From: Porphyridium purpureum | Taxonomy: Eukaryota | Direction of reading: 5' to 3' | Length of the DNA: 64,000 nt | NCBI GenBank assembly: GCA_008690995.1 | Contig: VRMN01000001.1 | Coordinates: 186,001-250,000 of the forward strand | Shown here: positions 1,357-37,831 of the stretch, piece by piece | How positions within the stretch are numbered: position 1 is the stretch's first letter | Layout: each line of letters opens with the position of its first letter | The notes under the pieces: model-generated | Told to the model about the DNA's origin: nothing | What the model saw: only the letters and a program-made list of their open reading frames with translations | Database searches by the model: none | Program-made: the position numbers and the translations under genes

Positions 1357-3434
1357 TATGAACCAGCATGTAAATGTCATAGGCCCAGCAGAGCTTCTGT
1401 ACAATGGTCTTGGTCTTGTAGAGCACTTTATGCTTTCACATTTTCTTTAATTCCGCACAGGGAGGGTTTGTATTTTGCTTTTCAATGTCAGTATCTATTA
1501 TGGCAGCCCCTGACCGGCTTCTGGCTGTTGAGATAGCAAGCTTGCGCCCAAACGCCCGTATATCCCGCCATTCACGATTTTGCTCAGTGCATTGCGCAGC
1601 ATTTCTCTCAACCTCTTCCATGTCAAATTCTGCACATCGCGAAGATCAGAACGACCATTGCTGTATGGATAGAATAAACAAAAGTCTCCGTGTCACCGAT
1701 TGCGAAGATAGACTTTATCTCTCCTAGTCTTGAAAAGTGAAAATCAGTGTAACGCCGAAACTACAGAGATTTGGTGTGAAAGTTTACAAAGCTGCACAAA
1801 ACGCGGGCAACTTTCAGTTCCGAGCTCCACTTGTTATACAGCTTTGCCGCTTGGCCTTTTGACAAATTCCACAGACAGAGGTACAGGGCACAGTTTCACC
1901 TCTCCGAATTTTGACATTGAAATTTCCTTTCTTTTGGGTTTGAAACTGAATCGACAAAATCCGATCACTTAATCGAAAATAGAAACGAAAAAGCGCCACA
2001 GTCGTGCCCGTCTTCTTCAATTCCTATTTCGCATGCTTTTGTCTCTCACAGACCTGGTATACATTAGCCAAATCTAATCCTTTGGTTTTCGTCGTATGCA
2101 GCTTCGGCGAGTACTTTATCCAACTTGCATGAATCACAACTTGATTATCTAACAATAAAACCATTGATTACTCTCCGTCATGGATACTGGGTAAGAATGA
2201 TAATCCATAGAATAACGAAACTTCCAACACTTCTTTCAGGGCGGCCAGCCCTGACTCTGAAGTCAGGGAACTCACGAATCGTTGCCGTCTTGAGGATCAA
2301 TGCACCAAATACTTGTAATTTCGAGCAATTAGATACGCTGGTGATTCAGAAATCAACACGTGACTCTCTCGGTAGCTTTAAATTCAACGGTCGAGTATCC
2401 AAGAATGCTCACCCCTCCAATACCTTGAGGCCTTCGAACACAAGATCCTTTAGTGCCTCCTGTAGTATTTTAACACTCAGTAGGACCCGCACTGTCAATC
2501 TCTCTGATGCCACATTCCACTTGTCGATGTGCCGGACAATCGTACCAATTGTATAGGAAATATCAGATCAAACTGTTCTGCATAGTCACAGTAGTCTCTC
2601 TATATCATTTAGAACCTTCATGGTATTCCAGATGACTTCAAAATGTTCTGTCTCACCCCTTCCCCTGGCTACCTCTCACTTCGCCATCTGATCATATCGC
2701 AGGTCTACGTCTTCGAATGAGCTTCTACCTCTTGCCGCAACAACACGGTACAGGGTAAGCCACTTGACCATAATATTTGAAAGATTCTTTTTTCACACTT
2801 GGGGGCATAGCACGAAGTCTCGTTCCTCGATGTTGTAGGGTTAAAAATGAATTCAGGACTTCTTTGTCTTCCTGCTTATCACATGATGACCTCACGGCAC
2901 ACAGTACGCGTCCAATATCCTTTTTAAATTCTCGAATGATATCATGGTGACACACATGATTCGCCGAACTCGCACTCCCATTTTCCACGGTAAATGTTGT
3001 CACCAAGAATTTTAATTATCCCCCGGCCGTCAGCATTCCTCGCGCTTTCTTAATGAGAGAATCTTGCTTCACTTTTTCGATGATTTCTTCGCGTCCCTTC
3101 TTCCGACAATTTAAAGGACCATCGCCCGCATAAAGAGCTAACAGAGCGATCAAAAACTTTCCAACGCCTCGTTGGACACACACGATCTTATTACTATGCA
3201 CAAAATTCCTGTCAAAATTTTGCAATTTCCTCCGGATATTTGTGAGAACTTTGAGCCGCTCTTCGCCATGTTCACATGTACCGTATGGTAATTCTGTCGA
3301 CAGGTACGATTGTCTGGTCCACAGCATGTCTTGAATTTACTTTGCGAAGAAATTCAGTGACGCACACTGAGGATAACTGATCTGATTTCTAAATTAACAG
3401 AAAGGACGAAGCATACCACTAGGAGCTCCAAGAC

Positions 3435-3797
3435 TCATGAGAGGTAGAGGCAGCGCCGTGGTGCGGATTGTAGTAGAAGGCCATTCTCTTTTTACTACAC
3501 CGAAAGACCTTACCTCTAAGCCTATCTCCAAGTGGTGCCGAGTCGCCAGGCGAGAGGAGGCTGGCGCTTAAATAGAGCCGCTGCACTGCACTTCGCTTCT
3601 GCCGTGCGGGCACGGCCCTGCGGAGGGGTCGCCCGAGTGGAGGTGAGGGGTCGCGCCCCCTCCCGCGTCTTCGCCGTCGGGCGAACTAGCTGCCCCAACG
3701 GAGCGTCTCCATCCAGCCCGACCGGTTGCGGCGCCCTGGTGACAGGGACCGAACCGCTGCCGGTCTCGCCGTTGGGGCGTACAGCGATGTCATCACA
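3435..3797 (-). repeat. 3' LTR of the copia element
   Basis: Direct repeat of 7834-8196. On the minus strand it begins TGTGATGA and ends TCATGA. Confidence 0.95.
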
Positions 3798-6065
3798 CGC
3801 CCCCTCGCTGGACGCCGCAACACACAGGATTCGTCCTCGATGAAGACCAAATTTGTCTGCGCTCAGCGCCTTTGTCATCATATCCGCGGTATTTTGCTTG
3901 GTTCCTACTCTCATCAACAAGAGATTCTTGGCCTGCTCTGTGAGCTCATGAAGCCATGCGAGTTCGACGCCGTGCGTCTTTGCCATGTGCAGGAGCTTGT
4001 CGGACCATCCCTTCTTCACGCTCGCGACCGCAGCTTCGTTGTCGCATCGAACGATCGGGGTGAAAGGCTTTGCATGGCATGATTCTCTTGCTTGTTTTCG
4101 CATATGCTCTTGGAGAAGCAAAATCGGCATCACACCCAGTTTTACAGTGTGCGTCAATGCCGCGAGTTCGGATTCTTTGGTACTTGTGCTGCAAGCTCGC
4201 TGTCGGCTCGAATGCCAATCAATCAGATAATCCACTTCACCCACCCGCGCAAATACCAGGAACCCAGAGGTTGACTTCCGAGTTTTCAAGCAGCCCGCGT
4301 AATCTGCGTCGCTATAAGCATCCACTTGCGCCATCGCAAGGCCCTGCTTCGTCGTTACCTGTGGCCGCTTGAACGGGATTCCGAGATTCGTATGCCAGGC
4401 TAGGTAACGCACGGTACGGTCAAGAGCCATTGCAGCTGCATCGTTCCACGCGTCGACGTGTCTAGCAATCCATGCCGCGGCGTGCGCAACATCTGGGCGC
4501 CCTGCTCTGGCCAGCCACATCAGTTGCCCAATCAAACTCCGCACCCATGGCTCGCAGCATGTTGAGTCAGAAGCAGTCGCGAGTTCCACCACTTCATCAT
4601 GAAGTGGGGTATGCACCTTCCGAGCGATGCGATGTTTGCCTACTTCCTTGTATCCGAGCTTTTTCATGGCGTCCTTGACGAAAAGTGCGCAGTAGTCGGC
4701 ACTGTCCAGAACCCACTCGTTTTGATTTTCTGCGCGCACGCGCATTCCCAAAAAATCCACCCTGCCGTTCTCGGATATACGCTGTACCGGCTTTGAGATT
4801 TTAAAAAGCTCGAGCATTTCTTGTATGGCGAAGCCCAATGCCGAAATGTCACCTGCCAAGAGGCCGTCATCTACGTACAACGCGAGCAGGACGTCGGCGC
4901 TTTCGAAAGCCTTGTGGTAAAGGTTCATATCGCTCTGCGTTTGATGCCAACCGCGTTCGGTGAGTCGGCGTCTAGCCTCCGCGCCGAAGTCTGCGCCGGA
5001 ACGCGGCAGTCCGGGCAATGCTTTCTGCATTGGAACGACTGGCCGCTCAAATCCTGCCCAGGCATCCGGTCGCACGCTTTCAGGCAGCTCAAGATAAGTG
5101 CGAGGGCCGCGTGAGTCTGCCGAGAGATACGCAGAATCGACATCGAACTTAGCAAGATCTCCTGCCGCTCTGCCATGAGCGAGCACATACCGCGATGAGC
5201 GGAGTCCGATTGGTCGCTCGTACTGAAAATCGTCGTCTCGAACGAGGTGTCCACTGCCATTAAAAAGAACACACCCTTGTGCAACCAAACGAGCTTTAAG
5301 TAGCTGTTGCGATGTATCCTGTTCAACATTCTTGCGTGCGACCATCATCTTTCCGCGCACGAATTGAGCGCTCGGGTCGGTACTTGCTTCACGGAACGCT
5401 ACCACTTTCTTTGGATCAAAGACGTGCATGGACATCACAGCGTCTAGCTCACGTTTCACGGCCTGGCTTGCCGCCTTAGAGTTCAACGTGATCTTGTCCG
5501 TGATCAGTTCTGCTACTAATGCACTTTGCCCTGGGAACAGATCGTTGAGTATCTCAGCCGCGTTATCGTGCGTGATGCCGAGCACTTCGGCACGTCTTTC
5601 TGCATCGATAGCGCTGCGGCCCCTTAACTCATCGCGCGCCACAATCCTATTCCATTCTCCCCAGCCAAGCGCGTGCAGGCCGGACGCAAGTGATAGATCT
5701 TCCTCAAAGGTCCACTCGTTCGTTGCAGGCTCTACATCTTCTCTTTCAACCGTATGCAGTCCCTCCTCGATCTGCGACGTTTGATTGCCATTAGTCTCCT
5801 CGTGCAACGGCTCAGACTCATCGCTGAGTATATCAATGCCAGGAGGACCGACCATTGTTTCTGCGAAGCGCCCTTTCTCTTGGATGCGCACGTTGGTGAC
5901 CTCCCCCACGCTGCCATTCAAGAGAATGCGATACACTTTATGTCGCTTTCCGTACCCTACCAACACCCCTTTCTGGGCGCGGGCATCAAGTTTCTCTGGT
6001 CCTGGCTCAAAGACGTAGGCCGGTGATCCAAGCACGCGCAAATGCTCGGTGCTGCTGGATTCGCC
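3522..6065 (-). CDS. Copia pol, second segment: integrase C-terminus, Myb/SANT-like domain, reverse transcriptase, RNase H; reads on into the 3' LTR
   Basis: HLRVLGSPAYV..KLDARAQKGVLVGY (integrase C-terminus). KARLVAQG, FDVDSAYL and LYVDDGL (RT). YSDADYAG..RKSTSG, CDNEAA and ADMMTKAL (RNase H). Same frame as the upstream ORF, directly after the TAA at 6066-6068. Confidence 0.92.
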   Translation of the reverse strand, partial: GESSSTEHLRVLGSPAYVFEPGPEKLDARAQKGVLVGYGKRHKVYRILLNGSVGEVTNVRIQEKGRFAETMVGPPGIDILSDESEPLHEETNGNQTSQIEEGLHTVEREDVEPATNEWTFEEDLSLASGLHALGWGEWNRIVARDELRGRSAIDAERRAEVLGITHDNAAEILNDLFPGQSALVAELITDKITLNSKAASQAVKRELDAVMSMHVFDPKKVVAFREASTDPSAQFVRGKMMVARKNVEQDTSQQLLKARLVAQGCVLFNGSGHLVRDDDFQYERPIGLRSSRYVLAHGRAAGDLAKFDVDSAYLSADSRGPRTYLELPESVRPDAWAGFERPVVPMQKALPGLPRSGADFGAEARRRLTERGWHQTQSDMNLYHKAFESADVLLALYVDDGLLAGDISALGFAIQEMLELFKISKPVQRISENGRVDFLGMRVRAENQNEWVLDSADYCALFVKDAMKKLGYKEVGKHRIARKVHTPLHDEVVELATASDSTCCEPWVRSLIGQLMWLARAGRPDVAHAAAWIARHVDAWNDAAAMALDRTVRYLAWHTNLGIPFKRPQVTTKQGLAMAQVDAYSDADYAGCLKTRKSTSGFLVFARVGEVDYLIDWHSSRQRACSTSTKESELAALTHTVKLGVMPILLLQEHMRKQARESCHAKPFTPIVRCDNEAAVASVKKGWSDKLLHMAKTHGVELAWLHELTEQAKNLLLMRVGTKQNTADMMTKALSADKFGLHRGRILCVAASSEGACDDIAVRPNGETGSGSVPVTRAPQPVGLDGDAPLGQLVRPTAKTREGARPLTSTRATPPQGRARTAEAKCSAAALFKRQPPLAWRLGTTWR
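3798..3806 (-). promoter_or_regulatory. Polypurine tract of the copia element
   Basis: GAGGGGGCG lies immediately 5' of the 3' LTR on the minus strand. Confidence 0.8.
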
Positions 6066-7829
6066 TTAGGCAACCGCAATAGGAATCTGTCCTCGTGAGT
6101 TCATTGAACGGTTTAGCACGTAGCATACCGCCGGAGCTAACTCCGGCCAAAGGTCCTTACTGATGTTCTTGGCGAGAACAACCGCCCGTACCTTTTCGAG
6201 GAGGGTTCTGTTGAAACGTTCAGCACGTCCATTCATTTCTGGGACGTAAGCAGGGCTCGGTCTCAAGGATATGTCACGCGCCGCTGCCCACTCTCGCACC
6301 GCGGAGTTCATGTACTCCGTACCCCTGTCTGTGCGGAGAGTCTTCGTCTGTTGCTTGCAAGCTGTCTCCATCATTGACACCATAGCCATTAATACAGCAC
6401 CGGTCTGACTTTTCCGGTGAATGGGAGTGCAAGCTGACAATCCTGTGGCATCGTCCACCAGAGTTACCAAGTAACGTTCTCCTTTCGCGCCTCGTGGAGT
6501 CACTTCGAGAACATCAGAGTGTATGACTTCAAGAGGCACTGAAGCACGACTATCGTTTGGCGGAAATGAACGCCTTGTGCTCTTTGCCAGTATGCATATC
6601 TCACATGGCAGAGATCTATCGTACGGATGGCATAGCCTCTCATGCAGCAGCTGGCTGCTGATCCCGCCCGCTGACATCGGCGAGTGATCCTTGGCAGACA
6701 GTGCATATAACCCGTCACGTAGTGTGCTCACAGTCGTCTCGCCCTTGTCCTCGACCAGACACTTTCCTTCTTCGAACATTACCTTGGCACCTTCAGCCGC
6801 CAACTTCGGGATTGATATCAGATCCAGCGCTAGTCCTGGAACATAAAGGACATTGCGGAGATGTAGGCCTTCAACCTGCGCGCATCCGGCTGCTGTAGCC
6901 TCCATCTCGCCATTGTTCGCGGTCCTTATCTTATGATTGCATGGTCGAACGTTCGAGAGCAGTTGCACACACCCCGTCATGTGCGCAGAGGCACCGGAAT
7001 CAAGAATCCAAAGCCTCTTGCCCCCGCGTACAGCGTCAGCGTACGAACGCTTTACGGTGTTTAGCGCAAACATAGCAATCTCGTTCGACTTGGTGCCTCC
7101 CTCTTCCTCTGTGGCTGTCGCATTGCCGCGCGCTCGACGAGTGCAGTTCCGGCGCGTACGCCCGGATTTTCCACAGTCCCAGCAAGAGCCGTCGAACTTC
7201 GCCCGCCTTACATTCGAGCGCTGGGCATCCGTCTGCCCCGCGAAGAGCGACCGTTCGTGTGCGCCCCCGATCGCGGCACCCTTGCGCCTGCCTACCTGGC
7301 GCTCGATCGCGAGCAGCATCGACTGAATGCTCTCAATTCCAGCCACTCCACCACCAGCAATCCATGCTTGTTCAGCGGCTGCAAAATCGTCCGGAAGCGC
7401 CTCGAACAAGGCATGGACATATTCAGGCTCAGACAATTCGACTCCCAGAGCGCCGAGCTCCCGGCGGAGCATTGTCATCAGACCAAGCAGTTCCCCTACT
7501 GCTTTCCCAGCATGCTCACCAAAGTTTGCCAAGTTCCTGCGGAGCTCGCGCTCGTATGTTGGCGCTGCCGACTTGGACATACCTTCAAGCCGCTCCCATG
7601 CCTCTTTAGATGAGCCCGCGTCGGCAACCACGTGCATCAGCATCTCATCAACCAGGGCCCCGATGAGCCCTTTAGCTTTCTCATCCTTGATAGAAAACCC
7701 GTCCGACTCCACAGAAATCCCACCCCCGACGACTCCCCAAACCTCTTTCTGGCAAAGCATCAGTTTCATCCTGATACTCCACGTGGGGTAATTGGCGCAG
7801 TCTGCCCGCAGCACATAGGCTGGGCTCAT
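6066..7829 (-). CDS. Copia gag-protease-integrase segment ending at an in-frame TAA (alternative in-frame ATG at 7883 inside the LTR)
   Basis: Gag NYPTWSIRMKLML..VW, degenerate knuckle CWDCGKSGRTRRNC, protease WILDSGASAHMTG, integrase HHCC and HSDV/LVDD/LRTDRGTEY/NGRAERFNRTL. Confidence 0.92.
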   Translation of the reverse strand: MSPAYVLRADCANYPTWSIRMKLMLCQKEVWGVVGGGISVESDGFSIKDEKAKGLIGALVDEMLMHVVADAGSSKEAWERLEGMSKSAAPTYERELRRNLANFGEHAGKAVGELLGLMTMLRRELGALGVELSEPEYVHALFEALPDDFAAAEQAWIAGGGVAGIESIQSMLLAIERQVGRRKGAAIGGAHERSLFAGQTDAQRSNVRRAKFDGSCWDCGKSGRTRRNCTRRARGNATATEEEGGTKSNEIAMFALNTVKRSYADAVRGGKRLWILDSGASAHMTGCVQLLSNVRPCNHKIRTANNGEMEATAAGCAQVEGLHLRNVLYVPGLALDLISIPKLAAEGAKVMFEEGKCLVEDKGETTVSTLRDGLYALSAKDHSPMSAGGISSQLLHERLCHPYDRSLPCEICILAKSTRRSFPPNDSRASVPLEVIHSDVLEVTPRGAKGERYLVTLVDDATGLSACTPIHRKSQTGAVLMAMVSMMETACKQQTKTLRTDRGTEYMNSAVREWAAARDISLRPSPAYVPEMNGRAERFNRTLLEKVRAVVLAKNISKDLWPELAPAVCYVLNRSMNSRGQIPIAVA

Positions 7830-7833
7830 AACC
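7820..7833 (-). promoter_or_regulatory. Primer binding site of the half-tRNAiMet type
   Basis: GGTTATGAGCCCAG follows the 5' LTR directly. It is complementary to the initiator-tRNA anticodon arm, the primer type of Drosophila copia and Ty5. Confidence 0.88.
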
Positions 7834-8196
7834 TCATGAGAGGTAGAGGCAGCGCCGTGGTGCGGATTGTAGTAGAAGGCCATTCTCTTTTTACTACACC
7901 GAAAGACCTTACCTCTAAGCCTATCTCCAAGTGGTGCCGAGTCGCCAGGCGAGAGGAGGCTGGCGCTTAAATAGAGCCGCTGCACTGCACTTCGCTTCTG
8001 CCGTGCGGGCACGGCCCTGCGGAGGGGTCGCCCGAGTGGAGGTGAGGGGTCGCGCCCCCTCCCGCGTCTTCGCCGTCGGGCGAACTAGCTGCCCCAACGG
8101 AGCGTCTCCATCCAGCCCGACCGGTTGCGGCGCCCTGGTGACAGGGACCGAACCGCTGCCGGTCTCGCCGTTGGGGCGTACAGCGATGTCATCACA
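7834..8196 (-). repeat. 5' LTR of the copia element, TATA-like TATTTAA at 7967-7973
   Basis: Direct repeat of 3435-3797, followed by the PBS. Confidence 0.95.
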
Positions 8197-9391
8197 AAGA
8201 CTGCTGTTTATTGATTTATATTTTTTCGCACCAAAAGTAGATATTGAGGTTTCAGCAATGTTTGCACCGAAATTCGTATTCTGGCTCGAATTATATTCTT
8301 GCCAAGATCCTTTCCTGTGCGATATATATGTGTTCATGCCTAAACCTTATCTTAGGGTCTGACACTGTGGTTACACCAAGAATGTTTTCTTAAATATTGT
8401 TGTATCCCAATCCTTTTCCTGTACATACAGTCTTGCGGGTCTATTGTGCAACATCTATCATTTTGCCAATCTCTAGAGAAAGATTATTTAAAGCCGATGT
8501 GCAGAGCCTTCTCCCCAATTCAATAATTGTCTCCCAAGAGATCATGCGTTATCCGTCAATCCCGTGGCTACCTAGTTCTGGCCGGAATCTGGCTAGAAAC
8601 GGGCTGGTGCATTGTCATTTTTCACACACTGCTACCGGTGACGCTGACGAACACGGAAAGCCAGTTTGTGTAAAGACGCAGAGACCCGCAAGCAGGCTCG
8701 GGGGTAGACAGGAGGGATGAGAAAAAGAGAGAGCGACGGGGAGAGGAGGAGAGGGAAAAAAGGAAGAAAGGTTGATAACCGGTAAATGGGCGACAAAGTT
8801 CAGTGCTCCCAAGCAACAACGACCGATAACAGTGGAACTCGAAAGGTCGTTCTTTCTGTTCGCACAAGCTTGGAATGTGAAGGAGTACAAAAGGACTACT
8901 CTTCAGGTCTAGAAAGGGGCATCAAAGCTGCCCATAAAAGATGAGAATGTTTACCAGCAAAGGAATTTGCCTGCCAATTTTTATAATTTCTCTTCCTTCT
9001 ATCTTGGATTTCTTGAGACCGAATGCTTTTGTGAAAACATTTAGGTAGGAGCCATATTGATCTGTTTCTACAGGCGGTATCCAGTGCGATGGAAACTGTG
9101 AAGAATAAGATTTAGCCTGTTCTTCGATCAGTCGGAAAGAATCTGGAAACGACTTTTCGCACAAATCGTCAAAGGAGGATAGAATTGAGAAAAGGCCTCG
9201 TTGTTGAGACCGCTTAAACACTTACTGCATCCTTGAATACATATCGGTTAAGGAAGAATGTCTAACGGAAATGGTAGCGCGGTGAGGGCTTGCGGCAGCC
9301 TTACGGCACCAAATGTCTCCCTTGACGAGCTCACTAAGCTTTGATACGAACAGAGCTTCAAACGTGACGCGTTCTGGGAGGCGTGCTCAGC

Positions 9392-9927
9392 TGTCACCAG
9401 AGTACATTTGCTGCAGCTCGTAAATCGAAATATTGAGAATAGAGCAGCGGAAGGAGAAATCGAAAAGATGGTGGTGAAGTGGGAACGACAGGACGGACCT
9501 GTATCATCGTCGGAGTTGTGGGCACGTTGGCCGCGGTGAGGCAGAGCAACTCGCCGCGGCGTAAGCCGCTCTCAGTGGGCCGCCGAGTAATCGAGCTGAA
9601 GGACGGCCGGTGGTGCCTGGTAGACGGCGTGTGGGTATAAAAGAGCGCCCGGGTATCCCACTGGGCGAAAAGAAAGAGAGAGAGAGAAGTCTTAAGCAAT
9701 TTAGAGAACGAAAAGGAAGAAAGAAAATTAACGGTAAAGAGTGCGGTTACAAAATCGAAAAACGTAACGGAAGGAGGGACTGTAGACGGTTTCAGAGCAG
9801 CTTTATGTGCTCTTGATCGTGAAGCCAAACGGTCACTGCCCCTTGGGTCAGGACCGTGTGTGCACGACCGTTCCAAGTTGAGGGATATATAACTAGCACG
9901 TAGCACAGTCTCCTATCCAGTCCGACA
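9392..9927 (+). repeat. Putative LTR of the downstream decayed copia
   Basis: Starts TGTC and could end GACA. Has GGGTATAAAAG near 9633 and a purine-rich tract, and sits upstream of gag remnants. No second copy or TSD found. Confidence 0.35.
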
Positions 9928-10699
9928 ATAAAGAGAGAAGGGCAAGAGACAAGCCCAGTTAAAAGCATTCACAAAACCCCTGCACTAAGGAGCAGGGTAT
10001 TGGAGTGGCGACGCTCTCTTCACAGATTAAGGGGATTAGAGTAGATCAAGTCCTTCCTGATACTTCAACATATTTTAATCCTTACGCCCGCACAACTGGT
10101 CACGCTGAAAATATTTCAGCCTGAAAATGGCGTTCAAGAACGTTTTGGACGAGGCCTTAAGATTCACGTGGCCTCGCACAAAGTGCAAATACCGCAGCCT
10201 CCTGTTGAAAAGTACCAGCGTCCCCTGAATGCAGCAACAGCCACATTCCGGCAGCAAATTTGCCTCAAAATGCAAGCGGGAAAGCTGAAGGACTTTATAC
10301 GGAACGAGATGACTTAAAGGCCGCCAAAGAACTCATCAAAATGTACATGCATGCGGCCAGAAGTACGGAGGAGGGATTAATATGTCACAGAAACCAGTGT
10401 TTCGAGGTTTCGCACCCCAGGATGATTGCAATAGCGCAGGGGAAAATGTCGACGAGCCGGAAGTAGATTCACCACGATGGACTAGTCTTCGGCTTCACAG
10501 GAGGTTACCTTTGACGGCTTTGTAATGATATTTCACGCGAAGGATAAGGTCCTTTATTTTCCCAATGCTTAATTTCTGCGTTTCAACTTTTTCCCCAAGC
10601 ACGACCCTCGAAAAGTGGGGCCAACTATTCATGCGAACGGTGCAATCTACACTAGAAACCTGCCTGCGGCGATAGACAATTCTAGACGCAGCAGAAAGT

Positions 10700-13600
10700 G
10701 ACTGTCTCGCGTCATGGAAAAACACGTCGGGCGGTGCTACATGCAGGCGTACAGTTCGGGGTTAGACAACAAAGGACCTCATATGGCTTCTAGAAGACTA
10801 TCGCGATGATTGCGACGCCCTTGAAGCCAGCGCTCAACTTCGCACGCACATAGTGCACGTCCTGGTCAAGGGCGCGCCATGTCCATTTTATCTACACCAT
10901 ATCAACGGTTTGACTCGTAGTTTTGACAAGGCTAAGCAGATGATGCGCGCGCACATCTTCACACAGGACCGTGAGGACCGCGTTCTTGAGCTGAGGAATC
11001 TACTATCTTTTCGTGGCATGCAGCCGGATACATACACAACCACAGTAGAAGCATTCAAGAGATTGGTGGAACGCGCCCAGCTCTTGCAGAAGTACCTGCC
11101 GAGGAATTATGGTAGCGATACCATTCTGTGTGACCGTATTCGTACAAACGTGAAAGAAGCATCCTGATCTCGCTTTCTCTCCATTAAACCCGCCAAGAAT
11201 TCGTATGAACTGGAGGAGCGAATCAATGTGGCGAGAGCCAGCGGGACAGATGAAGATAAAGGAAGCACGTCGCCTACGTACTAAAATCGCAAGTACGAAG
11301 GCCGGCGAGGCCCGGTGAAGAAGACCCCTGTAAAGAATGGAAAGCGTGTGCTTTGCCATGCGTGTGGGTCTGAATGGCATTTGATGAATGCGTGTAAGAA
11401 TGCAAAGCCGTAAAGGTGGGCTCTGCTGATCAATACAGTGAACTCGGGTCTCCGTGACGAACACGTACCGGAAGAAGGATGCAAGACAGAGACGGCGACA
11501 ATGGAGCCGGCGGGAACACCACCCTCCAAGCACAGTGTAAAGAAGTATGCTTCGTCGACGGGTTGCGGTACCAGTCATGAAATGAGAGTGAACAAAAATA
11601 CGATGATGACTCCAGAGATTGAAACGCGCGGGGTTGCGATGATGTCAAGGTGTTTTATGCATCTCGTGACGCGCACTGCATGGGAAAGATTGCTCGAAAT
11701 CAAAATTTATTTCTGGGTTGCTGTGAGGGCAGTAGAGCACCAAGGTCCGTGGCTGGGCGCAAGCCATTTGAGGCGTATGCGTTCGTCACAAGACACAGTC
11801 GCGCAAAAGTTAGAGCGAGCAAGATGATTTTCAAGTTCAGAGACAAAGTCTTTTCTGGAAAAGGAATGCATCGCGTACGTGTTCCAATGGCAGACGCCAT
11901 GGTGGCGCATGATGTCCATGTAGTTGACGTCGACTTACTTATGCTGCTACGCCAGGACTTCTTCCGCAAACACAATATCAAGGTGGATCACGGCAAGAAT
12001 CTAGTGCAGACCGGTGAAGGAACGTACCGAGTGCAACTCTCGGAAAACGAAGGACATCTTCACTTCCCTGTCCAGGACGTGCTATTTACGCGGAACGAAG
12101 CAAGTCACGTCCAGAATTATTTAAGCTATGTCAGTAGCGAAAAATCGTGAAACTTGCGTGCAATGCGCAGCCAGAGAACGGAGAAGCAGGATTCGCACAA
12201 CTGAGGAAGCTTGTAGATGAAATCAGTTCGAAATACGACGTGAACCAGCTCAGCGATAAGGCACCACTTCGCTCCGCACTTGCGGAAGCCTGGCCTGATG
12301 AAATTTGGTTCAATCTTGAACTACTTTTGGGCGGGTCCCATACAGAAAATACCGAATAGGCACGGAAGCAACCAGCACTACACGTGGTGGGCATTGAGAC
12401 AAAGTTAGTACTGCTGGCTTTTTGGAAACTGAAACAGCAAGTGAATTAATAGATGCATTTGCCAAAGAATAGGTCTGCCATCACGAGCTTCTAATTAAGG
12501 TGCGTATTGAACAGGGGATTGAATTGATGTCGATGTAGTGCTCGAACGCCACGATGTCGACGGATTTTGAATCAATGCAGATCGGCAGAGTGCCACTGGG
12601 CACTAGATGCGGGCGACAGGAACCATACTCTCCTTAAGCGTAATCACGAGACGCTGATGAAGGACTTTGCAATGGAAAAGTGACGTAGTGTCGTCAATGG
12701 CAGCCTAGGCAATAAATGACCTGATGGATCTGGACGGATTCGTGCCAAATTACCGGGCTTTTGGATTTATACCGCGGCTACTCGTCGGGGATGATATCAT
12801 GTCCTCTTGTTCTGTCTCACCCGTCCTCCCTCTCCCCTTTTCATTCCAGCCTAACGTGTCTCCTTTTCTCTTCGCGGCCGCCGTTCACGACGGACTTCAA
12901 CAGTAGAAGAGCGGGCACTATCCAAACACTTCCTGCGGAATGAATTGATGACGAAAGATGATCGAGTGCGCTTGTATGAATACGATGAGCGCAAGTGAAA
13001 GGGCCCATTGTTTTGAATGATGTGGATTGCAAAAGATACTTTACTTGACATTCAGTCAAAAATGTGCGACGGCTACTTTCGCCAGCAATGGTGAGGCCTA
13101 AGTGTAAAAAACCGGCGTGTCTTATGCTCAAGCATGACTCTGGCTGCCCAACCGTGGAATCAGACACAGCAGATGCTAACAGGGCAGCAAAGCGAGTGGA
13201 GATAGCAGGGCTGCATGACTTGAAGAGTATTTTTCAAGAGTTGTCTGGCGAAGACTTGCTGCATAGAGAGAACATCATGGAAACAAAGAGAGCGCTCACA
13301 GAGACGGTAAAGGATGGTGGCAGTTTGCTGCAAAATGCGCGCTCCAAGGTGCTGAGTAATTTGGATCAAGAGGAAAAAGCAATGGGTCGGGACAAGCCAC
13401 TTGTGCATACCATCTCGATTCGGATGGCCCTCGCTGTCACGGAGATGAGATGCTGGAAAATGCGGACCCGGACTGGAAAGGAATTGTGCTGCTGACTCGA
13501 AAAGCAGTTTGCAGAAATTAAGTTTCTGCGTCTGCCCAAAGAAGACCACCGACACAGAAATATAATCCTACAATTGCCGTCTCCTCTATATGGCCTGTCC

Positions 13601-13850
13601 GATAGAGGAATCATTTGCGTTGCGACATCTTCGGACGCAACCCAGCAAGATGCTGTAGCAAGCCAGTTGTTTGGATCTACATCTTTTGGGTGCAGACCAC
13701 GCACCAATGGCATTGCAGATTGATGACATACTTTGCGTCGGCGACGCAGCTTTCGCGCAGCGCGTGGAGAAGCCTATCGTGCGATCTAAAAGAAATGCCA
13801 AGAATACCATCCTGTTTGTTTTGGTGGAATGACAATTGACTCTGGTCTAC
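10700..13850 (+). mobile_element. Decayed Ty1/copia (GalEa-like) remnant: gag, protease, integrase, partial RT
   Basis: Knuckle CHACGSEWHLMNAC (11354-11395). Protease-like APRSVAG..FKFRD..VHVVDVDLLMLL. Integrase-like PALHVV. RT-like SIRMALA and PLYGLSDRG (from 13583). Many stops and frameshifts. Confidence 0.75.
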
Positions 13851-14278
13851 GCGGCTTGCTTTGTATGCATCAGCGTTCGTACAAAGTGTGATTGCTGGAA
13901 CCGGACAATTCCGAGCTGACGCCAAGCTTGAGACCCAGACTATTTTGGGGCTTAAGCTTTTTGCCCCTTCTTTCCCCATGACACGAGGCGCATCTTTAGC
14001 GAATGGCCTCCCTCTTCATCCTGTTTGCCGTGGAATAGGATGTACGAGCCGACGATGTTTGCCTTACTAAAAATTTTATTGCGCTGTACCTCTTTGTGTC
14101 GCTTGTCCTACCATTGCGCCAGTTCCTTCAGCAGGGCTTAGTTGAACGGTGCCAGACATATTTCACTATTAATGGCAGAGCGATAAGAAAATGGCTTACC
14201 ACCGAACAACATTTTGATAGTCTGCAGCTCGTTCAACGTTATGGCTGAAAGGATATCAATCAGGCGTCATGAGGCCAT

Positions 14279-28271: not shown

Positions 28272-29769
28272 CCTTGATGTACGGCACCACCAAAACGCGC
28301 CGTTTGGGTAGAGACGCGCAGCGTGACTATGAAAAGGGGCGCGTTTGCATAGGAGTCTGAGCGAGGCGCGCGGTGCGGAGTGTACCTCGCACTGTACCGC
28401 GGGCTGCGCGCGCGGGGTGTGGGCTTGGGGAGGAGAGAGAGGCCGGCAGGGCCGGTGCGGTGCGGCGTTGCCAGGTTTTGGAGCGCGGCGCGTGCCGCTT
28501 CGCGCGGTCGTGAGTGTGGCCCGGCCAGGTGCGCGCGGCGGCGCGTGAGAGTGGATGTAGACTGGAGCGCCCGGACAGCGTGCGTGATGAAGATCGTGCA
28601 GAGTCGCACGCGGCGTGCGGCGAGATGAGCGGCCGCGTGTGTTCGTGCGGTCAGGCGCCCGTTTCTCTCCGATTCCGCGATTCTACGCGACGGAAAGCGC
28701 GTTCGCCTCGAGGAAATCGGGCGCGTCGGGGCAGGCGCGTGGAACGTGCCTTGCGACAGCGGCAACGGTGGATTCCCGTCGCCTCCGGCGACACCGTGTC
28801 CATTTCGCGTGGGAAACCCGCATCTGCGCCGTTTGGTAGTTTTATGTACCGGGCCCTGGCGCCTGGCTCTGGTTTGCCCGTAAATAGTTATGACTCACAG
28901 GCCTACGTCGGCTTGCCAAATATACTGTTCGCGCCACATGCAAGCCGGCGCGATGCAGCGACTCGTGATAGGAACAGTCATGTAAGGCCATCCCCGGGCC
29001 GACTGAAACCCGCTCGCATACAGGCGAGCATGTGGGCGGGCACTGCAAACGCGCGCTTCGCAGCGGTCTGCCGAGCATCTCTGTTGTCGCGGAACACAAC
29101 TCCATCCTTGCTGTGGCGTTGACACCCAGCGTGTTACGTACGAGTGCTTCAGACACCGAGCGCGTGCGCGTCTTGAACACGACGAAGGCTGCTGAGTTCT
29201 TCACGATGCTGGTCGCTGCGGGGTGATGACAGCCAACTGTGCGATGTGTGACAATGATGAGGCCCTCAAGGACCGGGTCCGGCCGCCTGCGATGCACACA
29301 CTGACCTCTCACATGAGCCGGTGCGACACTGCGCGTCTCGACCTGGCATTCTTGGTCTGACCTGCGGCGGCAGACTGTTTCTGTGCACAACACCTCCAGC
29401 TACCCAGACCCGTACCGCTTTTTGCCACGCGGCGCGAGCGCATCCACTGCATTTGCGAGGCAGCGCCGTGGCCACCTTCCAAGCTCACGTTCCGGAATCG
29501 CTGCTGCCAAAGCCCCCGCGCATTGTCCGCGCGCCGTATCCGCCCCCTGTCCACCACCCTTGCTTCTCCGGCACTGTCACTTGATCAACCGGTTTATCGG
29601 TTTATTGGGTTATCGGTTTTTATCCGTTGTGGCAGGGAATTTCGGAGAGCGGGTGTTCAGTATAAACTGTACTGACTGTACTAACTGTACTCAACGGTTA
29701 CGAGTCGCGGTCGGCAGCGCGCCTGTGCGGCGACTGGCAGAGGGAGAGGGAAGGGACGGACGGTACGGG

Positions 29770-37536: not shown

Positions 37537-37776
37537 CCTTTCCTGCACCACACGCAACACGCACAACACACAACACACTCACACTCCCGGACTCCCCCTC
37601 CAGTCCCACTGGCCCCAATGCTTCCGCCTTTCCCGCCGCGCTGACTCGCTCCAAACGGTTTCCCGGTTTCCCGGTTGCAGCCTTGACAGGTCCGGAAACC
37701 GATGAACCAAATGGACCTCTTGAGCCATTAAACCATAAAGCCCAAAATCCAAAAGTCCAATAAGTCTATCAGCCAT

Positions 37777-37831
37777 TTAGCCAGTTAGCCAGTTAGCCAG
37801 TTAGCCAGTTAGCCAGTTAGCCAGTTAGCCA
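37777..37831 (+). repeat. (TTAGCCAG) x about 7 tandem repeat in a divergent promoter
   Basis: Six full units and one 7/8 unit, all perfect. Confidence 0.95.

Follow-up and report, generated by a model that had tools for sequence, protein, structure and literature searches.

A Myb-type domain between integrase and reverse transcriptase in Ty1/copia retrotransposons of Porphyridium purpureum

The retrotransposon and its surroundings

The window (the whole 64-kb stretch of Porphyridium purpureum DNA that was analysed) carries a complete Ty1/copia LTR retrotransposon of 4762 bp, which is the host of the domain described here (Table 1). Its domain order, Gag-PR-INT-RT-RNase H, is that of copia, with PF14223, PF22936, PF00665, PF25597 and PF07727 matched by Pfam in that succession, and the remaining hallmarks (LTR pair, target duplication, primer-binding site and purine tract) are in place, but the termini read TG...GA and not TG...CA. 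We take the primer-binding site to be of the internal initiator-tRNA type, as in Drosophila copia and Ty5. The identical LTRs, together with the 5-bp target duplication, point to a recent insertion. The reading frame extends beyond the purine tract and ends within the 3' LTR, at a stop at 3522-3524.

Table 1. Coordinates of the retrotransposon and its parts in the window (+, forward strand; -, reverse strand)
Feature	Position	Strand	Basis
Ty1/copia LTR retrotransposon	3435..8196	-	termini TG...GA; Pfam domains
5' LTR, 363 bp, no difference from 3' LTR	7834..8196	-	sequence comparison
3' LTR, 363 bp	3435..3797	-	sequence comparison
Target-site duplication, left copy, AAGAC on + strand, 5 bp	3430..3434	.	
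Target-site duplication, right copy	8197..8201	.	
Primer-binding site abutting 5' LTR; contains likely start codon	7820..7833	-	sequence
Purine-rich tract preceding 3' LTR	3798..3806	-	sequence
Copia-type Gag, PF14223	7287..7769	-	Pfam E 6.5e-16
Protease, PF22936	6789..7010	-	Pfam E 2.1e-14
Integrase HHCC zinc finger, shortened; 7 residues from second His to first Cys	6594..6644	-	
Integrase catalytic core, PF00665	6243..6536	-	Pfam E 1.1e-10
In-frame stop of the window copy, between integrase core and SH3, upstream of Myb	6066..6068	-	
Integrase SH3-like C-terminal domain, PF25597	5877..6056	-	Pfam E 2.2e-11
Acidic linker, unconserved among families	5715..5870	-	family alignment
Myb-type three-helix domain, 46 residues; TRF/telobox-like scaffold, altered recognition helix	5577..5714	-	
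Predicted fourth helix following Myb; alignable with P0004/P0057 only	5538..5561	-	
Reverse transcriptase and RNase H region, divergent clade; PF07727 at 4668-5321	3816..5522	-	

A second genomic copy, P0002 (KAA8496869.1, Porphyridium purpureum), is open throughout its 1451 residues. Near-identical element DNA is present in further DNA runs, where the stop codon of the window copy differs in X3, X5, X6, X7 and X8 and not in X1. Other contigs hold diverged relatives of the window LTR, with up to 26 differences per 232 bases, plus other junctions, and these strains hence contain related families of LTRs or solo LTRs; the 30-base flanks at these other element junctions are AT-rich.

The element lies in a block described as TE-rich in an earlier reading made from the sequence alone (the sequence-only reading); its flanks are gene-poor, with a GC content of 0.43 and 0.47 vs. 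0.58 for 21700-64000, and a Tc1/mariner-type transposase frame (DDE_3 and Tc3 HTH in Pfam) is found nearby at 138-1160 on the minus strand. Within 9500-14000, broken frames (10766-12150) resemble, by eye, the remains of another retroelement, with no convincing Pfam match. The 64-kb window contains neither tRNA genes nor telomere-like tandem repeats. A tandem array of 7.6 copies of an 8-base unit lies at 37771-37831, upstream of a minus-strand gene, and further 8-9 base arrays lie at 29590-29691 and 37656-37676.

A Myb fold with a TRF-like build

The sequence-only reading had proposed that the peptide encoded at 5580-5714 on the minus strand is a Myb/SANT-like domain set in the copia pol between integrase and reverse transcriptase, after an acidic linker. 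We located the domain at that place and in frame, downstream of the SH3 domain of the integrase. Its match to PF00249 (E 2.3e-4, 21.6 bits) covers profile positions 2-27 only and misses the curated cut-off of 24.4 bits, as does that of the sister protein P0007 (24.3 bits). Eight of nine family segments match PF00249 at E up to 1, the best at 6.9e-7, with P0004 as the sole segment lacking a Pfam Myb match. Among PDB sequences, the best match of the window domain is the Myb of human TRF1 (E 0.0024), gap-free across 40 residues, in line with the gap-free alignment to a TRF-type repeat claimed earlier. A profile built from eight sister-family domains, with the window family excluded, scored 26.8 bits on the window family, leave-one-out profiles retrieved each of the nine domains (20-83 bits), and a PDB search with the nine-sequence profile placed Myb proteins on top. 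None of five canonical copia proteins, nor P0005, P0058 or P0006, scored above zero with the full Myb profile. In the ESM Atlas, the top match scored 0.94, with PF00249 present in 14% of the members of its cluster. Two of the core Trp residues are present in the window domain, the third being Ala.

Modeling with AlphaFold on the single sequence returned a pLDDT of 55 and no meaningful fold match; with the nine family sequences, pLDDT rose to 84, with predicted Myb helices at 5667-5708, 5640-5654 and 5580-5612 plus the fourth helix of Table 1. The top six Foldseek rows were all TRF1 or TRF2 Myb, four of them at an rmsd of 1.2-1.3 A over 47 residues, with E-values (0.26-0.85) that are weak, as usual with a domain of this length. 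In VIA-align, where a Z under 8 is middling, the best row was TRF1 (Z 7.0, rmsd 1.9, 51 aligned), tied with Cdc5, WER, c-Myb and CoREST SANT2. In the Atlas model of P0007, all ten structure rows were Myb clusters, TRB and TRF included, and all lay below the bar at which the tool names a family. As judged by profile matches and predicted fold together, the segment is confirmed as a genuine Myb-fold domain with a TRF-like build.

SANT domains have the Myb fold without its base-reading residues, and an acidic histone-binding surface. Helix 3 of the element domain does not look specifically SANT- or SLIDE-like, as had been suggested: the SLIDE-type PF23588 was matched weakly (E 0.003) in one of nine segments, that of the window domain, the SANT rows in VIA-align lie within about 1-2 Z of TRF1 so that Myb and SANT are not separable by fold search, and the nearest sequences are telobox/TRF-like Mybs. 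In a search of 1.84 billion representatives, the best 150 of 4269 matches were mostly multi-repeat Mybs, and the closest non-element domains among these 150 were fungal and other eukaryotic telobox/TRF-like repeats as well as multi-repeat Mybs of Triparma; the sole new element-type domain among them was P0184, a further Myb-bearing fragment and again from P. purpureum. Single-domain relatives from other algae may rank lower than these 150. Two of the Triparma proteins among the closest non-element matches in these best 150 of 4269, P0064 and P0068, contain 4-6 Myb repeats in tandem, in which the loops are long and helix 3 is degenerate.

The element domains and the telobox/TRF-like Mybs have in common a long loop between helices 2 and 3 and the motif L-x-x-R-[ST] before helix 3. 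In helix 3 itself, a comparison of 10 element domains with the 30 best full-length non-element domains revealed the following: 1) the position of the third Trp is Ala in 9/10 element domains vs. 1/30; 2) a Gly four residues past this position is found in 9/10 vs. 0/30; 3) the telobox Asp is found in none of the ten vs. 20/30; 4) the last telobox Arg is retained in 2/10 vs. 22/30. The shared Ala and Gly favor a single origin of the element domains. In a free tree on 52 columns, the ten element domains fall into three groups, and a single clade was not rejected (AU p 0.37). We infer from these sequences that a telobox/TRF-like Myb gene was the source of a single, ancient capture. Of the earlier proposal of a captured host domain that steers integration, the TRF-like Myb and its conservation in sister families are supported, and the steering is a conjecture; the capture is not particular to the window copy or its family, and no Porphyridium donor gene came up among the sequences compared. 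A prokaryotic or phage origin is not favored, with no PHROGs match for the nine segments and GcrA appearing as a fold match only (Z 6.1).

According to the passages on Myb classes in PMC3789555, bases are read by helix 3, Myb classes are defined by motifs, among them telobox and SHAQKY, and the telobox helix 3 consensus is LKDKW(R/K)(N/T). This consensus is absent from all ten element domains, and the CCA1-like motif SHAQK(Y/F)F is complete in none, with its Ala common and S-H-A present in P0015/P0016; nine proteins gave no NCBIfam Myb match. Given the absence of both motifs, it is unlikely that telomeric repeats are read in the TRF manner, and with the base-reading residues of the telobox gone, the Myb would not read these repeats as TRF1 does. 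The N-terminal arm is neutral or basic (0 to +4) in eight domains and acidic in the window family (-3) and P0057 (-2); the net charge of the domain is -3 in the window family and -4 in P0057, within a range of -4 to +5 across families.

Distribution among families and position on the integrase tail

Ten clusters at 90% identity cover the integrase-RT junction in P. purpureum (P0001/P0002, P0004/P0057, P0005/P0058, P0007 and P0014-P0019), and the Myb is found at the same position in nine of them, the exception being P0005/P0058; in addition, P0038 retains a partial remnant, and P0026 stops short of the site. Identity of the Myb among families is 30-53% where measured, with the core residues kept and the surface residues of helix 3 variable. 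Myb segments beat shuffled sequences in 36/36 family pairs (z 2.7-36.9, with segment limits anchored on by-eye motifs, which favors Myb scores), vs. 2/36 pairs (z 9-10) for the 60 residues upstream of the Myb, with all remaining pairs at 2.0 or less. That the Myb recurs while the upstream linker is unalignable between most families indicates that the Myb has been selected. Neither outcome named in the sequence-only reading as contrary to it was observed: a Myb match and a three-helix fold were found, and the segment is neither absent from the sister elements nor, as judged by these comparisons, neutrally evolving in them.

The acidic charge and loss of the basic arm in the window family and P0004/P0057, together with the missing Pfam match of P0004, alone among nine, would be compatible with a Myb that was functional in an ancestor and is now a decaying relic in the window family. 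We find such decay very improbable, as evidenced by: 1) the identity of the window family to P0057, which is 40% in the Myb, vs. 15% (background) in the linker and 61% in the RT; 2) the confident predicted fold (pLDDT 84); 3) the identity of the two genomic copies, window copy and P0002, over the Myb; 4) the position of strain differences, with none of the 21 listed within 5250-6150 falling in the Myb vs. 3.2 expected, a count that excludes the stop codon, treats non-independent sites and leaves out one unlisted difference, in a 59-base X5 contig over 5678-5736, that may fall inside the domain. A putative RNA run, X15, has no contigs over 5250-6150, which says nothing either way on expression.

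In the RT tree, from which P0008, P0012 and P0013 were excluded as they do not have the anchor motif, the Porphyridium elements and the Myb-less transcript P0006 group in one clade (100/100) that excludes six canonical copia proteins. On the sequences compared, the Myb is common to a whole lineage of elements in the genome and is not peculiar to the window copy or family. A query comprising the linker, Myb and RT start recovered the window family alone among 1253 candidates of 735-2342 residues. Among viral contigs, 27 pattern matches yielded no confirmed case. None of 22 metagenome loci had a Myb match, and since only four of these score as the Porphyridium RT clade, with little integrase tail, they are no evidence that the Myb is absent there. 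These searches, which cover little of the RT clade elsewhere, found no Myb-bearing element outside Porphyridium.

In all nine families, the Myb comes after the SH3 domain and before the conserved start of the RT, a hydrophobic motif kept across families, from which it is separated by 3-91 residues; on its upstream side, it is borne on a linker that is 56-106 residues long and unconserved in sequence. P0005, P0058 and the canonical copia P0008 have an integrase tail that ends in a basic motif, and in P0004/P0057 the Myb is found upstream of this motif. In Ty1, the cut between integrase and RT falls at a hydrophobic stretch equivalent to the RT-start motif of Porphyridium. We infer from this arrangement that the polyprotein would be cleaved downstream of the Myb, which would then remain on the integrase. 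The contents of the tail vary, comprising the Myb alone in seven families, a Cys-rich motif plus the Myb in P0018/P0019, the Cys-rich motif alone in P0006 and neither in P0005/P0058, as expected for an accessory module. The Cys-rich motif, C-x2-C ... C-x2-C ... H ... C ... C-x-C (P0006 225-263, P0018 910-949, P0019 953-992), has no Pfam match and is probably a second, zinc-binding accessory module.

The zinc finger of the integrase is also altered in this lineage. The HHCC spacing is 6-7 residues in 7/9 Porphyridium integrases (in the other two, the pattern took an earlier His) vs. 25-29 in five canonical copia proteins, making the finger about 20 residues shorter in the Porphyridium families examined, Myb-less P0058 included. 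One could surmise that the Myb is part of intasome architecture, gripping the element's own cDNA ends or the target DNA without choosing a site and perhaps offsetting the shortened finger, a role to which the predicted three-helix HTH fold would lend itself and with which the short spacing in all Porphyridium integrases examined would agree. However, P0058 has the short finger and no Myb, the Myb is carried on a long linker of unconserved sequence, and the telomeric and Myb-site words tried are absent from the LTR except for a degenerate 5-mer that occurs twice (a weak test); we consider this architectural role unlikely.

P0014-P0016, P0018, P0019, P0026 and P0038 carry a Ty3/gypsy-type Gag and protease (PF03732, PF13975 and, in most, PF19259) before a copia-order integrase and RT, and are likely gypsy-copia mosaics by their domain content. 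The window family has a copia-type Gag and protease, yet belongs to the same RT clade as the gypsy-Gag elements. By integrase distances, the window family is nearer to canonical copia than is the P0007 group, with the reverse for RT distances; in the integrase tree, from which P0024 (mis-cut), P0023 (long branch) and P0038 were excluded, one clade was not rejected (AU p 0.113). Although the distances suggest an integrase swap between lineages, we do not claim one, given this test and the short zinc finger in common. The elements that carry the Myb fall in one RT clade but differ in Gag/protease (two types) and have very distant integrases, as if the Myb were inherited with the RT half, and it might be a protein-interaction module for another step, such as assisting the RT, nuclear entry or acting as a decoy of a host telobox-binding silencing factor. 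Protein-binding Myb folds (CPC/WER with EGL3, CoREST SANT2) rank level with TRF1 when folds are compared, and the window-family domain is acidic, both of which would suit such a module. Against it are the location of the Myb upstream of the basic motif of the integrase tail in P0004/P0057, the simple explanation of co-inheritance by physical linkage to the RT, and the lack of support for an integrase swap; a role in another step is, in our estimate, improbable.

Proposed role and comparison with known systems

As the likeliest role, from position and analogy and at a probability of about one half, we propose that the Myb, predicted to stay on the integrase as its tail in the Porphyridium copia lineage, would tether the integration complex to chromatin and bias the choice of insertion sites. 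After processing, the integrase would carry the Myb on its flexible linker; by binding target chromatin, the Myb would concentrate the integration complex locally, and this tethering would bias site choice on the model of the Ty1 and Ty5 tail motifs. From charge and helix 3 composition, DNA is the more likely ligand where the arm is neutral or basic and helix 3 is basic (eight domains), and a chromatin protein or histone surface the more likely one for the acidic window family and P0004/P0057. The gene-poor site of the window element and the AT-rich flanks at other junctions would be expected just as much if insertions in genes were selected against. Speaking against targeting are the lack of telomere-like tandem repeats and tRNA genes in the window, the persistence of the Myb-less P0005/P0058 in the same genome and the acidic domain of the window family, unlike DNA-reading Mybs. 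More tentatively, we postulate a copia counterpart of the chromoviruses, in which a telomere-protein Myb, captured once and fixed on the integrase tail, had its recognition helix re-tuned in each family, so that families sharing one very compact genome would each be directed to a DNA or chromatin address of their own, and some would combine the Myb with a new Cys-rich finger.

The sequence-only reading knew of no copia family with a Myb/SANT domain at this position, and we likewise found no report of one in an LTR-element polyprotein in the freely available full-text literature searched, so that a prior mention may exist elsewhere; the passage found in PMC3520747 is unrelated to such domains. 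An accessory domain on the integrase tail is an architecture of a known kind, the Myb on a copia integrase appears to be new, and the arrangement is well supported as a structure, with targeting suggested by analogy. To our knowledge, insertion-site choice of copia elements is known in detail for short yeast motifs only. The system is testable, as one small cultured alga has at least nine families whose Mybs differ in the recognition helix, along with a control family lacking the Myb and young copies whose LTRs are identical, and the 46-residue portable module would be a candidate for directing integrases.

Myb folds occur in other mobile elements, as exemplified by the N-terminal Myb of R2, the myb-like region of TRAS1 and the Myb/SANT protein of PIF/Harbinger, which bind target or terminal DNA; these are non-LTR elements or DNA transposons, and none is an integrase tail of an LTR element. 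That a Myb tether can work is suggested by an engineered fusion of the TRF1 Myb to the TRAS1 nuclease, which, in the part of PMC2868851 concerned, steers cutting to telomeric repeats. TRF1/TRF2, Tbf1 and the plant TRB/TRFL telobox Mybs provide the best matches in sequence and structure, with the same long loop and L-x-x-R-[ST] motif, but differ in having the telobox consensus given in the passages of PMC3789555, which is missing from the element domains. Ty1 and Ty5 are of the same copia superfamily and, in the relevant sections of PMC7459421 and PMC4700185, have swappable targeting motifs in the same region, the integrase C-terminus, that bias site choice; these motifs are short and linear, their partners are Sir4 or AC40 and their function has been demonstrated, in contrast to the folded captured domain of Porphyridium, whose role we propose by analogy. 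The chromoviruses (Ty3/gypsy, e.g. CRM) are alike in that, as a section of PMC10984392 describes, a folded chromatin-protein domain is fused to the end of the integrase across the lineage, with targeting of insertion proposed for the chromodomain; they differ in combining gypsy with a chromodomain, vs. copia with a Myb fold at an internal position before the RT. If our reading is true, a folded captured reader on a copia integrase would be the chromovirus solution, arisen independently with another fold.
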